The notes: a model not told the origin generated them from the letters alone. 64,000 nucleotides of DNA from Escherichia coli (GCF_022846255.1 NZ_AP025682.1), one strand, 5' to 3'; shown: positions 31,881 to 39,556, counted from the first letter of the stretch. Numbers and translations are program-made.

Positions 31881-32184
31881 GAAGGAAAAGCCGAAGGGCG
31901 TCAACCGAAAAATAACCAATGATGGTGAGGAAAAATCAGGGAAGATGAAAAAAACTCATCTTAATTAGAGGCGATAAAAGATTTCTCTATAGCGCAATCC
32001 ACCTCGCACGTTTTGACTCATATTCTGACAACACAGCGACACCTGGGCTAATTCGAAAAACAACGTCCTGCCACCGGATGGTGATGTTAAGGCATCTGAT
32101 TCGGCCTGCGCCCTCGCGTAGGCCGAATACAGGATCTGCGCAATCAACGGGTAACAAACAGTTGAGTCAATTCAGTGCGCACTT

Positions 32185-33744
32185 TTATTTGATATCCTTC
32201 ACGCGCATACCGTTGAGCTGTTCATCCGTAATGGTGTTGCCCGCTTTGAAGTAATCAACCACCGCGTGATAAACGTAATAACCGCCCGTTGTGTTACGCG
32301 CTTTCCCTTCGGTAAAGGCGGTAAAACCATCTCCACCATCAGCAAGGAAACTCTGAGTAGCAATGTGATAAACCGTCGCATCTTCAATGGGTTTGCCATT
32401 CAGAGTCAGTGTGATTACCCGCTGACCAACCGGCTTGCTGCTGTCGTACTTCATTTCCAGGCCTTTCGATACCTGTAAAACGCCATTGCTTAAACTTGCG
32501 CCGTGTTCCATCAGACTGCGTAATTGTTTACCCGTGAGTTCCATCGTCACCAGTTCGTTGGGGAACGGGAACGTACTGATAACGCCGCCCATCGTGATCG
32601 CCCCTGCGGGGATCTCATTGCGGATACCACCAGAGTTTGTTAACGCCAGTTGGGTATTTTTACCCGCTGCTGCCAGTAAAGCGTCAGCCGCCAGGTTCCC
32701 GAGGGAAGCCGATTCACCATAGGCACGTTTTAATTCAACCGGCGATTGCGCCACCGTTTGTTGCACCACTTCATCAAGCTTTTTATTCCAGCCGTCGATC
32801 ACCTGTTTCGTTTGCGGATCGGGCTTCCACTCGTCAGCGTAAATGGTTTTAAGCTCGAAGTTTTTCACCGTAAAATTATGCGGCTTCTCTTTGTAGTCGA
32901 GAACCAGTTTGCCCACATCAATCCCGCCGCTGTCAGTGGAGAGGATGAGCGTATTGCCGACTTTAATCGGTTCCGGCGTACCCACATGTGCATGTCCGGT
33001 GATCAAAATATCCAGCCCTTTCACCTGACTTGCCGTCTGAATATCTTTATCCAACGCGCGACGCACATCTGTGCCTCCCATACTGGACTGGCGGGCCGGA
33101 ACACCTTCATGGATCAGGGCGACGGTCAAATCAACCTTGCCTTTAAGTTCATCGATATAACGTTGTAGCCATTTAATTTCATCACGCGCCTCAATACCCA
33201 CTCGCGTGGCAGCAGATACTGTGTCATTAAAGGCAAATACACCGTGCAAACCTATAACGCCTATTTTCACACCGTCTTTTTCGATGATGGTATAGGGCTT
33301 ATCCCAGAATGATTTACTGCTGTTCTGATAAAAAACATTGCCCTGCACAATCGGGAATTTTGCCTGACTCAACTGTAATAATGTGTTGTCCCAGCCGTGG
33401 TCAAATTCATGGTTGCCTATCGTGACGGCATCAAACGGCATAGTATTCATAATATCGATAATAGCCTTACCTTTGGTCAGGCTGCTGATATATGGCCCGG
33501 TAAAATAGTCGCCCGCATCAAAAAACCATGTCGCTTTATTTTTTGCTTTTTCTTGCTTAACCAGCGTAGTGATATTTGCCCAGCCGCCAATATCCCGTTT
33601 ACCGTTCGCAATCCACGGCACTTTATAAGGCTCTACATGTGCATGGAGGTCGTTAGTATAAATAATGGTGACATCTTTGGCGCAAGCCCAGAACGGCAAT
33701 GTTAATGCGATACCCGCAGCAAGTATTTTAATTTTCATAAACAA
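32185..33744 (-). CDS. Secreted bifunctional metallophosphatase/5'-nucleotidase (UshA/CpdB family), paralog A, 519 aa
   Basis: Signal peptide [22 protein letters not shown]; metallophosphatase motifs [26 protein letters not shown]; C-terminal 5'-nucleotidase-domain motifs NSGGIR, FPFPN, GGDGF; absent from metL-metF interval in my memory of K-12. Confidence 0.85.
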
Positions 33745-33797
33745 TCCCTTTCAGTGAGATAAAGGATTGCTACATTACGTTCTGAAAGACTTATTTA

Positions 33798-33813
33798 TGT
33801 GAGAGTAATCACA
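33798..33813. promoter_or_regulatory. CRP-type binding site (TGTGA-N6-TCACA) in divergent promoter between paralog A and the zinc-ribbon ORF
   Basis: Sequence TGTGAGAGTAATCACA read directly; perfect match to both CRP half-sites with 6-bp spacer. Confidence 0.5.
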
Positions 33814-33870
33814 TCCGCAGGGGATAGTTGCCGGACAAAATCAACGACCTTGTGAAATCGTTGGTGATAT

Positions 33871-36778: not shown

Positions 36779-36818
36779 AATCTCATTTATCAGTCAATTT
36801 ATTTAACAAGGAATGTGA

Positions 36819-38438
36819 ATGAAAACAGCGCAGTGTACTTTACTTGCCGCAACATTGCTGACTATTTTTTCGACCTCAGTCATGGCGCAGGATGTCACGA
36901 TTATTTATACCAATGATCTTCACGCTCATGTGGATTCCTATAAAGTACCGTATGTCGCAGACGGAAAACGCGACATTGGTGGCTTTGCCAATATATCCAC
37001 GTTAGTAAAACAAGAGAAAGCCAAAAATAAAGCCACCTTTTATTTTGATGCTGGAGACTATTTCACCGGGCCATATATCAGTAGCCTGACAAAGGGCGAA
37101 GCAATAATTGATATTATGAATACCATGCCTTTTGACGCAGTATCAATCGGTAATCATGAGTTTGACCATGGCTGGGATAATGCCCTCCGACAATTAAGCA
37201 AAGCGAATTTCCCTGTTTTATTAGGCAATGTTTATCATAAAGAGAGTGAGAAACCCTTCTGGAACAAGCCCTACACCATCCTGGAAAAAGATGGCATCAA
37301 GATTGGTATTGTTGGGCTACACGGCGTATTTGCATTTAATGACACGGTCTCGGAGCTCTCTCTCCAGGGACTCGATAATGACAATAATAACCGATTTGAT
37401 AAATCTTCCGCGACCCTCAAGAATCAGGGGATTGAAGCACGTGATGAAGTGAAGTATTTGCAGCATTATATCGATGAGTTACGTGATAAGGTTGACCTCA
37501 CCGTGGCGCTGGTTCATGAAGGCGTACCGGCGCGTCAGTCCAGCATTGGCAATACAGATGTTAGACGTGCGCTGGATAAAGATATTCAAACCGCAAGCAA
37601 GGTGAAAGGATTGGATATTCTGATTACCGGGCATGCCCACGTCGGAACGCCAGAACCAATCAAAGTCGGCAACACCTTAATCCTTTCGACTGACAGTGGC
37701 GGTATCGATATTGGTAAATTAATCCTTGATGTCAACCCTACAGCTCGTACTCATAAAGTGAAGAGCTTTGAGCTGAAAACGGTTTATGCCGATGAATGGA
37801 TACCCGATCCAACCACACAAAAAGTTATCAATGGCTGGAATAAAAAACTGGCGGATCTTGTACGCCAACCAGTCGGTGAATCATCGATTGCATTAACTCG
37901 TGCCTACGGTGAGTCATCGCAACTTGGCAACCTGTTTACCGATGCAATGCTTGTCGCTGCACCGACTGCACAAATTGCGTTGATAAACTCCGGCAGTTTA
38001 CGTGCTGATATAAATGCAGGCACGATTACCTTTGGTGACATTACCAGTACATTCCCCTTCAAGAATGAACTTACTGAAATGGATCTCAGCGGTAAGGATC
38101 TGCGTAACCTACTGGAACACGGGGCATCGCTTACCAATGGCATCCTGCAAATGTCAAAAGGCGCAGAAATGCGCTATACCCTGCAGAAACCAGTAGGTCA
38201 GCGCATTGTATCTTTTAAAATTAATGGTGAAGAGATCGTTGATACGAATATTTACCATGTTGCGACTACGACTTTCCTTGCACTTGGGGGCGATGGTTTT
38301 CTGGCATTCAAAGAAGGGAAAAATGTCCAGGTCCGCGCCGGAAATAACATGTCCAATGTCGTAATCGATTATTTTAAGAAAGGCCACAAGATTACTCCTG
38401 CACAGGTAAATGAAATGCGGGTAGAAGTAAGCAAATAA
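36819..38438 (+). CDS. Secreted bifunctional metallophosphatase/5'-nucleotidase (UshA/CpdB family), paralog C, 539 aa
   Basis: [38 protein letters not shown]...; closest to paralog A but with ~25-aa insertion (ELSLQGLDNDNNNRFDKSSATLKNQ); 40-bp gap after paralog B suggests co-transcription. Confidence 0.85.
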   Translation: MKTAQCTLLAATLLTIFSTSVMAQDVTIIYTNDLHAHVDSYKVPYVADGKRDIGGFANISTLVKQEKAKNKATFYFDAGDYFTGPYISSLTKGEAIIDIMNTMPFDAVSIGNHEFDHGWDNALRQLSKANFPVLLGNVYHKESEKPFWNKPYTILEKDGIKIGIVGLHGVFAFNDTVSELSLQGLDNDNNNRFDKSSATLKNQGIEARDEVKYLQHYIDELRDKVDLTVALVHEGVPARQSSIGNTDVRRALDKDIQTASKVKGLDILITGHAHVGTPEPIKVGNTLILSTDSGGIDIGKLILDVNPTARTHKVKSFELKTVYADEWIPDPTTQKVINGWNKKLADLVRQPVGESSIALTRAYGESSQLGNLFTDAMLVAAPTAQIALINSGSLRADINAGTITFGDITSTFPFKNELTEMDLSGKDLRNLLEHGASLTNGILQMSKGAEMRYTLQKPVGQRIVSFKINGEEIVDTNIYHVATTTFLALGGDGFLAFKEGKNVQVRAGNNMSNVVIDYFKKGHKITPAQVNEMRVEVSK

Positions 38439-38514
38439 CAAAAACTTATAATACCATTCATTCACTGGATGACATTATTTCTCTCTAAATCAACAATATA
38501 TAAGAGATATATTT

Positions 38515-39375
38515 ATGTATATAAAAAAGCACTGGATAGCTTTATCCATTCTATTAATACCTTGCATTGGAAACGCTCAGGAAATTAAAATTGATGAAAG
38601 CTCGTTACATCAAAGCTTGAATGTCATTGGTCGCACAGACTCTCGCTTTGGCCCAAGACTGACTAACGACCTCTACCCTGAATATACTGTAGCAGGAAGA
38701 AAAGACTGGTTTGATTTTTATGGTTATGTTGATCTACCGAAATTCTTTGGCGTCGGCAGTCACTATGATGTTGGGATCTGGGATGAAGGCTCACCACTAT
38801 TTACGGAAATAGAACCTCGGTTTTCCATTGACAAATTGACCGGATTAAATCTTGCGTTCGGCCCATTTAAAGAATGGTTCATTGCAAACAACTATGTCTA
38901 TGATATGGGTGACAACCAGTCATCCCGGCAAAGTACATGGTATATGGGGCTTGGTACAGATATCGACACGGGTCTACCAATTAAGCTTTCTGCCAATATA
39001 TACGCCAAGTATCAGTGGCAAAACTATGGTGCCGCTAATGAAAATGAATGGGACGGATATCGATTCAAAATAAAATATAGCATCCCTCTTACAAATTTAT
39101 TCGGAGGGCGATTGGTATACAATAGTTTTACTAACTTTGATTTTGGCTCCGATCTTGCGGACAAGTCACACAATAATAAACGAACCAGTAATGCTATTGC
39201 TTCAAGCCATATCCTTTCCCTTCTATATGAACACTGGAAATTTGCATTTACACTACGTTATTTTCACAACGGTGGACAATGGAATGCGGGAGAGAAGGTT
39301 AACTTCGGAGATGGTCCATTTGAATTAAAAAATACAGGATGGGGAACCTATACTACTATTGGTTATCAATTTTAA
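38515..39375 (+). CDS. Tsx/OmpK-family nucleoside-specific outer-membrane channel paralog (286 aa)
   Basis: Signal peptide [23 protein letters not shown]; motifs shared with E. coli Tsx as I remember it ([78 protein letters not shown]); C-terminal ...GYQF beta-barrel signature; 76-bp gap after paralog C. Confidence 0.8.
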
Positions 39376-39556
39376 ATTAGGTGACATTTTAGATATTGTT
39401 ACTTAATGTCATTTTGTAATTGTCATTAATAACTTCACCATTCACTCTGTTACTTCATCGCTCAACACAAAAGCCCCCTTATTACCGGGGGCACTGACCA
39501 AAGGCAAAATGACAATCAATCACCACTTCCCCAGGAAGAGGTTTCGGGGTGACAAC

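Follow-up and report, generated by a model that had tools for sequence, protein, structure and literature searches.

The 64,000-nucleotide stretch of Escherichia coli DNA analysed here (GCF_022846255.1, NZ_AP025682.1; hereafter the window, whose positions serve as coordinates throughout) carries five intact genes between metF and metL, namely three paralogs of the UshA family (A, B and C), a cysteine-rich open reading frame of 374 amino acids (ORF374) and a paralog of the nucleoside channel Tsx. We think it rather probable that this interval is a catabolite-controlled envelope module for scavenging nucleotides and nucleosides, and that it was built in two layers. The first layer would be old and consist of a periplasmic 5'-nucleotidase-type enzyme, A, divergently paired with ORF374 at the metL-metF site. 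The second, present in ~12% of complete E. coli genomes, would stem from a recombination that replaced the 3' two-thirds of ORF374 and added B, C and the Tsx-type pore.

In the working that we propose, scarcity of glucose would lead cyclic AMP-CRP to bind a site shared by A and ORF374 and to turn on both, and the B-C-Tsx unit would probably be switched on as well through a CRP-like site of its own. The Tsx paralog would admit nucleosides or nucleoside-containing compounds to the periplasm, which nucleotides presumably reach via general porins; there A, B and C would dephosphorylate the nucleotides, presumably with different substrate preferences. Since the cluster encodes no inner-membrane carrier, the resulting nucleosides would be imported by the ordinary carriers that the host already has. 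ORF374, probably an immobile derivative of an IS1-type transposase, would most likely be a DNA-binding regulator or sensor for the pathway. The general idea of a scavenging module had been put forward in a preliminary description of this DNA and is borne out by the protein families, catalytic motifs and export signals. That description, however, had the freed nucleosides taken up through the cluster's own channel, which is at odds with the predicted topology: what a periplasmic enzyme sets free is already inside the outer membrane, and a Tsx-type pore would thus act before or alongside the enzymes, not after.

Paralog A lies on the minus strand (32185–33744, with the RefSeq start at 33738; CFT073 c4898/C_RS23150) and is an exported UshA-family metallophosphatase/5'-nucleotidase by annotation; B (35225–36778, RefSeq start 35228; c4896) and C (36819–38438; c4895) are exported UshA-family enzymes on the plus strand. 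In an alignment with UshA, the equivalents of D41, H43, D84, N116, H117, D120, H217 and H252 are invariant in all three proteins, which thus display the dimetal phosphoesterase motifs DxH, GD, GNHE-D, H and GHxH. The equivalents of the phosphate-binding R410 and of the base-stacking F429 and F498, which belong to the C-domain, are invariant as well. All three match only UshA-superfamily models in NCBIfam, and the Pfam search, which covered C, returned both Metallophos and 5_nucleotid_C (E 2.4e-36 for the latter), as the preliminary description had expected. Inspection of the N termini showed a hydrophobic stretch closed by a small-x-small motif of the cleavage type in A, B, C and the Tsx-like protein; no signal-peptide-like N terminus was seen in the same way in ORF374. 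The earlier picture of three secreted UshA-family paralogs with intact motifs is therefore upheld, and the loss of catalytic residues, which was to count against it, was not observed.

These enzymes nevertheless stand apart from their characterised relatives. A is 56% identical to B and 68% to C, compared with 25% to UshA. Against the UshA equivalog of NCBIfam the three score 153–167 bits, where the cut-off is 600, and their best equivalog scores (among UshA, NadN, CpdB and YfkN) are 97–197 bits versus cut-offs of 436–2801. On these scores, A, B and C appear to be members of the superfamily that fall outside every characterised equivalog. A is the ancestral member of the cluster. Its protein is 87–98% identical across genera, with a ratio of nonsynonymous to synonymous substitution (dN/dS) of 0.02–0.035, and it is ~99% identical to PDB entries 3IVD and 3IVE, which are named 'Nucleotidase'. 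The ligands of these entries are probably uridine and cytidine, and the argument makes no use of them. Paralog C has a 25-amino-acid low-complexity insertion, ELSLQGLDNDNNNRFDKSSATLKNQ, in its metallophosphatase domain (37353–37427), which is missing from A, from B and from the 518-amino-acid C-type proteins of other genera.

The Tsx paralog (38515–39375, plus strand; c4894) belongs to the outer-membrane nucleoside-channel family. It scores 488 bits on the NCBIfam model PRK15106 (cut-off 311), is 65% identical to Tsx of K-12, matches the solved Tsx barrel (PDB 1TLW) with an E-value of 2e-113 over residues 31–286, and shows a signal peptide, by inspection, together with a C-terminal ...GYQF. 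It follows C on the same strand after 76 bp, and C follows B after 40 bp. Tsx genes and nucleotidase genes are found side by side elsewhere too: Enterobacter asburiae, Citrobacter sp. wls619 and two Escherichia genomes carry C-Tsx-B-A clusters, opposite an ORF374, at chromosomal positions other than metL-metF. The Tsx proteins of those clusters form a lineage apart from both canonical Tsx and that of the window (pairwise identities ~58–64%), which implies that Tsx pores and nucleotidases were joined at least twice. This repeated joining suggests in turn that the pores may admit something besides plain nucleosides. In two of these loci, a radical-SAM/SPASM gene adjoins the C-type nucleotidase (E. 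asburiae, L027:1958-3046; Citrobacter sp. wls619, L050:1779-2930). It resembles anaerobic sulfatase maturases, scoring 258–320 bits, just under the cut-off of 349; what flanks it is not the same in the two loci, so that the gene may be part of the cluster.

The proposed catabolite control comes from the promoter regions. In an alignment of 21 orthologous spacers, the divergent promoter region of A and ORF374 (33739–33870), a 126-bp spacer, proves strongly conserved across genera. Its conserved blocks are TTACGTTCTGAAAG (33775–33788), a CRP site, CAAAATCA and AAATCGTTGGTG (33855–33866). The CRP site, TGTGAGAGTAATCACA at 33798–33813, agrees with the consensus TGTGA-N6-TCACA without a mismatch and is the only such match in the window. 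Across the orthologous spacers no change occurs in its TCACA half-site and hardly any in the other. Candidate –10 hexamers lie 31–33 bp from the centre of the site on both strands (TAATGT for A, CAAAAT for ORF374), a spacing that we infer to be class II-like and hence at an activating distance; the two predicted promoters of this type would lie around 33765 (minus strand) and 33847 (plus strand). A further CRP-like site, with one mismatch, occurs at 35115–35130 upstream of B, within an AT-rich control region (34996–35224, ~34% G+C) that also holds two palindromes. Of the three CRP matches with up to one mismatch in the window, two thus fall in the two promoter regions of the cluster. No Pho-box-like sequence was found anywhere in the cluster at up to 3 mismatches. 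The presence of the CRP sites and the lack of a Pho box together make carbon/catabolite control likelier than phosphate control.

Other elements of these regions are less telling. The hairpin-like palindrome CAACGA-N10-TCGTTG before the start of ORF374 was considered as a structured RNA or a symmetric operator and judged less likely to be either, because its 5' arm varies without compensating changes while its 3' arm is invariant; a constraint from the 5' untranslated region or the ribosome-binding site appears more likely. The two palindromes upstream of B, TGACCGTGA-N7-TCATGGTCA (35068–35092) and the perfect AAGACAC-GAT-GTGTCTT (35163–35179), could be an operator or a terminator-like hairpin.

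Comparison of the interval with E. coli genomes, which the preliminary description had recommended, placed its junctions and revealed three states of the locus. Homology to K-12 ends at ~31953 on the metF side and starts at the metL stop codon on the other; where the cluster sits, K-12 has ~195 bp of DNA resembling repetitive extragenic palindromic (REP) elements. Among 5,426 complete E. coli genomes, the metL-metF site is empty in ~66%, carries two genes in ~22% and five genes in 12%, the last being 658 genomes with a match covering at least 80% of the interval. A and ORF374 are found in 1,840 of the 5,426 genomes, ~1,180 of which have only this pair (an O25b:H4 genome is an example), and their co-occurrence in E. 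coli is almost perfect. The divergent pair occupies the metL-metF site also in Citrobacter, Klebsiella, Kosakonia, Phytobacter, Kluyvera and Superficieibacter, as well as in Pseudocitrobacter, E. whittamii, S. enterica arizonae and S. Senftenberg. Its presence at the same site in so many genera marks the pair as an old enterobacterial resident; on this distribution, K-12 and K-12-like E. coli most likely lost A and ORF374.

The second layer is visible as a break in similarity to the two-gene E. coli locus. Left of ~34200, identity is mostly 96–99%, with dips to 80–94% in places and, over the part that extends from katG past A and its promoter, local dips to 88–89%; the spacer from the shared metF promoter region to the end of gene A (31954–32184, delimited by alignment with the metL-metF spacer of K-12) is 88–98% identical. 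Between 34200 and 34800 the identity is 70–83%, and past ~34800 the sequences are unalignable until homology returns at the metL stop. The drop at ~34200 falls inside ORF374 (33871–34995, plus strand; c4897/C_RS23145), from which it follows that the five-gene form arose by an exchange with one crossover in this gene. The exchange appears to have delivered a diverged 3' part of ORF374 together with B, C and the Tsx paralog. The segment specific to the five-gene form, as defined by sliding identity against the two-gene locus, is 34200–39592. Accordingly, the island of ~7.4 kb that had been proposed needs to be divided: its part from ~34200 to 39590 is indeed specific to the five-gene form, but A and ORF374 are older residents.

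ORF374, predicted to be cytoplasmic, had been described as a zinc-ribbon protein, and it does have two N-terminal zinc ribbons, but these are joined to an RNase H-like fold of the DDE-transposase type, and the protein is transposase-derived. By itself, ORF374 matches the InsA/IS1 zinc ribbon weakly (residues 74–105; Pfam E 0.007; NCBIfam 23 bits, cut-off 28). The family, a small one of 123 representatives at 50% clustering, is more informative. Its profile aligns with IS1 InsA, over zinc ribbon and helix-turn-helix, with an hhalign probability of 96.6% and an E-value of 4.9e-10, and eight of 55 members contain an InsA-type zinc ribbon at E<=0.001. No match to InsB was obtained with the family profile, and no Pfam domain was found on the C-terminal 260 residues of any of the 55 members. 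An AlphaFold2 model of ORF374 built on 55 homologs has a mean predicted local confidence (pLDDT) of 93.5 and a predicted template-modelling score (pTM) of 0.93, and the matches to its core are RNase H-like transposases and integrases of the DDE type. The near-invariant or invariant positions of the family are eight cysteines, N156, Y168, R197, P221, H228, H246-E247, W296, W300 and N367. A DDE core should have an aspartate on its first strand and another following its fourth, yet neither of these aspartates, nor any other acidic residue in those places, is conserved, so that a DDE triad is not conserved; only the H246-E247 pair is nearly invariant. Distant members have the helix-turn-helix, whereas ORF374 and its orthologs in enterobacteria show a deletion in its place (columns 170–270 of the alignment). 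Relatives in the AlphaFold database come from Vibrio, Photobacterium, Enterovibrio, Serratia, Proteus, Atlantibacter and Salmonella and are named 'cytoplasmic protein' or 'IS1 family transposase'.

An active or recently mobile insertion sequence (IS) was considered and rejected. No inverted repeats flank ORF374; the gene is strictly single-copy in 1,841 E. coli genomes, and across genera it keeps the same chromosomal site. It is also essentially absent from real plasmids: it was detected in 19 of 72,556 plasmid records, all predicted to be non-mobilizable and mostly Mb-sized replicons or apparent pieces of chromosome. Of two such records that were inspected, one carries the core chromosomal genes katG to metJ at this locus. 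Several of the other records measure 0.4–5 Mb. The gene is under purifying selection (dN/dS 0.07–0.15, over saturating synonymous divergence), with gene A constrained more tightly. A role in anti-phage defence was likewise rejected, ORF374, A and the Tsx paralog giving no match in PADLOC.

The gene neighbourhoods tie this family to nucleotides and nucleosides. A genome scan took in the enterobacterial ORF374 subgroup; the more distant contexts come from single look-ups and from two matches in the plasmid collection. In each of the 35 enterobacterial loci that include the neighbouring side, the homolog faces a nucleotidase, which is of the A type or, opposite the two copies most distant from the rest, of the C type. 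Among distant relatives or paralogs, nine of 11 adjoin nucleotidase, deo or nucleoside-transporter genes. The distant relatives listed below are from other organisms and are 25–41% identical to ORF374. One adjoins an A/C-type nucleotidase (P0123) and another a 5'-nucleotidase of 515 amino acids (P0144), while a third lies directly downstream of a 5'-nucleotidase (P0160). Nucleoside phosphorylases stand beside three more, either directly upstream (P0203), together with a NupC-type transporter (P0140), or together with DeoB and a NupG-like symporter (P0145). P0148 adjoins a deo-type operon (adenosine deaminase, DeoC, DeoA, DeoB and DeoD) with a Bmp-type ABC transporter, and P0143 a porin, a class B acid phosphatase and a class II cyclic-nucleotide phosphodiesterase. 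Taken together, these contexts point strongly, by guilt-by-association, to a role of the ORF374 family in nucleoside/nucleotide scavenging.

In summary of the above, ORF374 is probably a member of a domesticated IS1-type transposase family tied to nucleoside metabolism. A more specific proposal, which we advance tentatively and consider somewhat less than an even bet, is that these domesticated transposases of gamma-proteobacteria, an unannotated family in which the zinc ribbon may or may not be followed by a helix-turn-helix, were recruited as regulators or sensors of nucleotidase, deo and nucleoside-transporter genes, and that ORF374, acting alongside CRP, would govern A and perhaps also B-C-Tsx. 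As part of the same proposal, the RNase H-like domain would have lost its DDE triad and gained the conserved His, His-Glu, Arg and Trp positions. The idea of a regulator derives from the InsA-type DNA-binding module and from the divergent arrangement of the genes.

Several observations weigh against the scavenging module and the part given to ORF374 in it. The regulator idea is weakened by the deletion of the helix-turn-helix from enterobacterial ORF374. No repeated operator motif was found in the promoter regions of the cluster, and neither TTACGTTCTGAAAG nor AAATCGTTGGTG recurs upstream of B or in the other promoter regions; the CRP sites, for their part, are sequence matches only. One distant relative, P0164, has no nucleoside or nucleotide neighbour. 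In addition, E. coli RHB23-SO-C02 (CP099174.1; L060:5001-6245) has an ORF374 paralog of 25% identity between dnaJ/mokC and nhaA, just downstream of a 'sulfatase-like hydrolase/transferase', which is another exported esterase-type gene and not a nucleoside gene. As for the enzymes, scores so far below the UshA, NadN and CpdB equivalog cut-offs allow no transfer of substrates by homology. Furthermore, Tsx channels pass nucleosides, not nucleotides, so that the coupling of pore and enzymes is argued from gene order alone. Finally, the literature searched yielded no biochemical or genetic study of the five genes, and the only expression value found for them concerns the Tsx paralog upon TosR overexpression.

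That value bears on an alternative in which the cluster serves interaction with the host, its exported enzymes destroying extracellular ATP, NAD or cyclic dinucleotides or making adenosine, with nutrition secondary. By analogy with the surface 5'-nucleotidases of Gram-positive pathogens, such enzymes might blunt host signalling. In CFT073, the c4894 transcript rises 3.3 log2-fold on overexpression of TosR, a virulence-linked regulator, as measured by RNA-seq (PMC5956150). The five-gene strains listed (CFT073, Nissle 1917, LF82, NRG857C and O18:H1) are typical of extraintestinal pathogenic or adherent-invasive E. coli (ExPEC/AIEC), and the enzymes give partial NCBIfam matches to the Nt5e, NadN and CpdB models. 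We nonetheless regard a virulence module as unlikely, given that A and ORF374 are widespread in environmental or commensal Kosakonia, Phytobacter, Kluyvera and Rahnella, that the enzymes lack a surface anchor and bear export signals of the common Sec type, that the conserved control element is a CRP site of the sort typical of catabolic genes, and that the literature searched revealed no phenotype in infection. Phosphate scavenging of the Pho type, in which the enzymes would free inorganic phosphate from organic esters under phosphate starvation, would suit periplasmic phosphoesterases, since UshA-family members release phosphate, and nucleotides as a phosphorus source had been proposed in the preliminary description. 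The Pho regulon was rejected as the main control, as the cluster shows a conserved CRP site where a Pho box would be called for, and the relatives of ORF374 adjoin carbon-catabolic deo and nucleoside phosphorylase genes; we therefore hold this reading to be very improbable.

It might also be asked whether ORF374 is a decaying IS1-like relic that stands beside gene A by chance and contributes nothing to the pathway. In favour of a relic are the zinc ribbon of InsA type, the transposase-type fold with its unconserved DDE triad, a truncated gene in S. enterica arizonae and a degraded one in Kluyvera genomosp. 3. Yet the frame is intact at the same position in more than 10 genera under the purifying selection described above, the gene is single-copy and free of terminal repeats, it co-occurs with A near-perfectly, and its distant relatives are likewise linked to nucleoside/nucleotide genes. 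A chance relic thus seems quite unlikely, and the two-layer scavenging module, with a domesticated ORF374, remains the account that we prefer.

The remaining features of the locus concern its borders and composition. In the map of open reading frames, metF (30913–31803) and metL (39593–42025) are both on the minus strand and are separated by 7,789 bp, compared with 348 bp in K-12 MG1655; a distance of ~7.8 kb versus a few hundred bp had been noticed before, as had the five-gene layout with its strands and gaps, and every coordinate and gene call was confirmed. G+C content is 34–48% over most of the interval (up to ~53% inside gene A), as against 53–61% in the flanking metL and katG. This deviant composition and the patchy distribution within the species are those of a genomic island. 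The classical marks of an integrase, a tRNA target and flanking direct repeats are lacking: no tRNA and no flanking direct or inverted repeats were found, and no Rfam family matched the interval at E<=1. The preliminary description had reported no integrase, tRNA or IS at the edges; this stands for the integrase and the tRNA and is extended to the repeats, with the reservation that ORF374, being transposase-derived, is an IS-related gene within the interval, though not a mobile one. A palindrome search and the sequence itself reveal two terminator-like hairpins downstream of metL on the minus strand (39473–39582), both within cluster-specific DNA: GCCCCC...GGGGGC at 39473–39492 and AAAGCTGGCA..TGCCAGCTTT at ~39559–39580. 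Downstream of gene A, on the minus strand, there is a G+C-rich hairpin, ATTCGGCCT...AGGCCGAAT (32090–32135), which lacks a T run and is therefore REP-like and not a clear terminator.

The site varies in other ways as well. Where E. coli has the two-gene form, metL and the ORF374 homolog, of 376 amino acids, converge so closely that their 3' ends share 37 bp (L003/L004:11095-11131). In E. coli DA61218 (NZ_CP061206.1, 1842334–1850899), an IS1B insertion in the cluster splits one of the nucleotidase genes. In a Citrobacter locus (L006:6897-8272), metF is separated from the nucleotidase by genes for a LysR-type regulator and a member of the carboxymuconolactone-decarboxylase family, which indicates that the metL-metF site gathered different cargo in different genera. 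'Plasmid 3' of S. Senftenberg NCTC10384 (NZ_LN868945.1) carries katG, metF, the nucleotidase/ORF374 pair, an extra hypothetical gene, an MscS-family gene, metL, metB and metJ. Despite its label it looks like a chromosome segment, and in it the metL-metF site takes yet a further form.

K-12 thus lacks a strongly constrained periplasmic nucleotidase that is carried by one in three E. coli genomes and by many other Enterobacteriaceae, and textbook accounts of periplasmic nucleotide breakdown that are based on K-12 are to that extent incomplete. With ORF374, bacteria provide a testable example of a transposase that became a host gene, and its genomic link to nucleoside metabolism is consistent across distant genera. 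ORF374 might be the only part likely to interest the specialist, the cluster itself adding little beyond prior knowledge. What the current work adds is the two-layer history with its breakpoint in ORF374, the conserved CRP site, the corrected direction of flow and the identification of the ORF374 family.

Indeed, the cluster is already known, annotated and published with the same functional reading. It is the same locus as CFT073 c4894–c4898, with 99.3% identity over 7,789 bp and the same five genes at the same lengths, and nothing of substance differs in sequence; Nissle 1917, LF82, NRG857C and others share this level of identity. RefSeq annotates three 'bifunctional metallophosphatase/5'-nucleotidase' genes, a hypothetical protein and 'Tsx'. 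Literature searches by locus tags, protein accessions and PDB codes returned only the TosR RNA-seq table and a paper on strain BEN2908, in which the region appears as 'GR 31 metL..metF' with the same functional inference for the enzymes and Tsx (PMC12928451; 2026, PLoS One). There, GR 31 is complete (>70% coverage) in all columns of the strain-comparison table, whose footnotes name RS218, UTI89, LF82 and NRG857c (PMC12928451). One statement of the preliminary description needs correction in this light. It had known of no characterised system of this composition, but the block is not an undescribed one: CFT073, Nissle 1917, LF82 and a further 655 complete genomes have it in annotated form, A has been crystallised (3IVD/3IVE) and the region has been published as GR 31. 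The published account differs from the present one in leaving out ORF374, the two-gene form, the wider enterobacterial distribution and the CRP site (PMC12928451).

How, then, does the cluster compare with better known systems? With UshA and the 5'-nucleotidase half of Bacillus subtilis YfkN, its enzymes share the Metallophos and 5_nucleotid_C domains, the metal-binding and catalytic residues, the stacking phenylalanines and the export signal; unlike UshA, to which A is so distantly related, they form a separate subfamily of three paralogs. Promoters of the E. coli nucleoside regulon have tandem CRP sites with CytR in between. The cluster resembles this CRP/CytR regulon (tsx, deo, udp, cdd, nupC and nupG) in its Tsx-family pore and in the consensus CRP site in a promoter, and differs in that its pore is a paralog of 61–65% identity placed within a same-strand run of nucleotidase genes, and in having a single CRP site and no tandem pair. 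ORF374, in turn, shares with IS1 InsA/InsAB' the InsA zinc ribbon, a helix-turn-helix in most members of the family and a C-terminal RNase H-like fold of the DDE type. It departs from them in that the family has no InsB profile match, no DDE conservation and no terminal inverted repeats, in that it is single-copy and syntenic across genera, and in that its enterobacterial branch has lost the helix-turn-helix.

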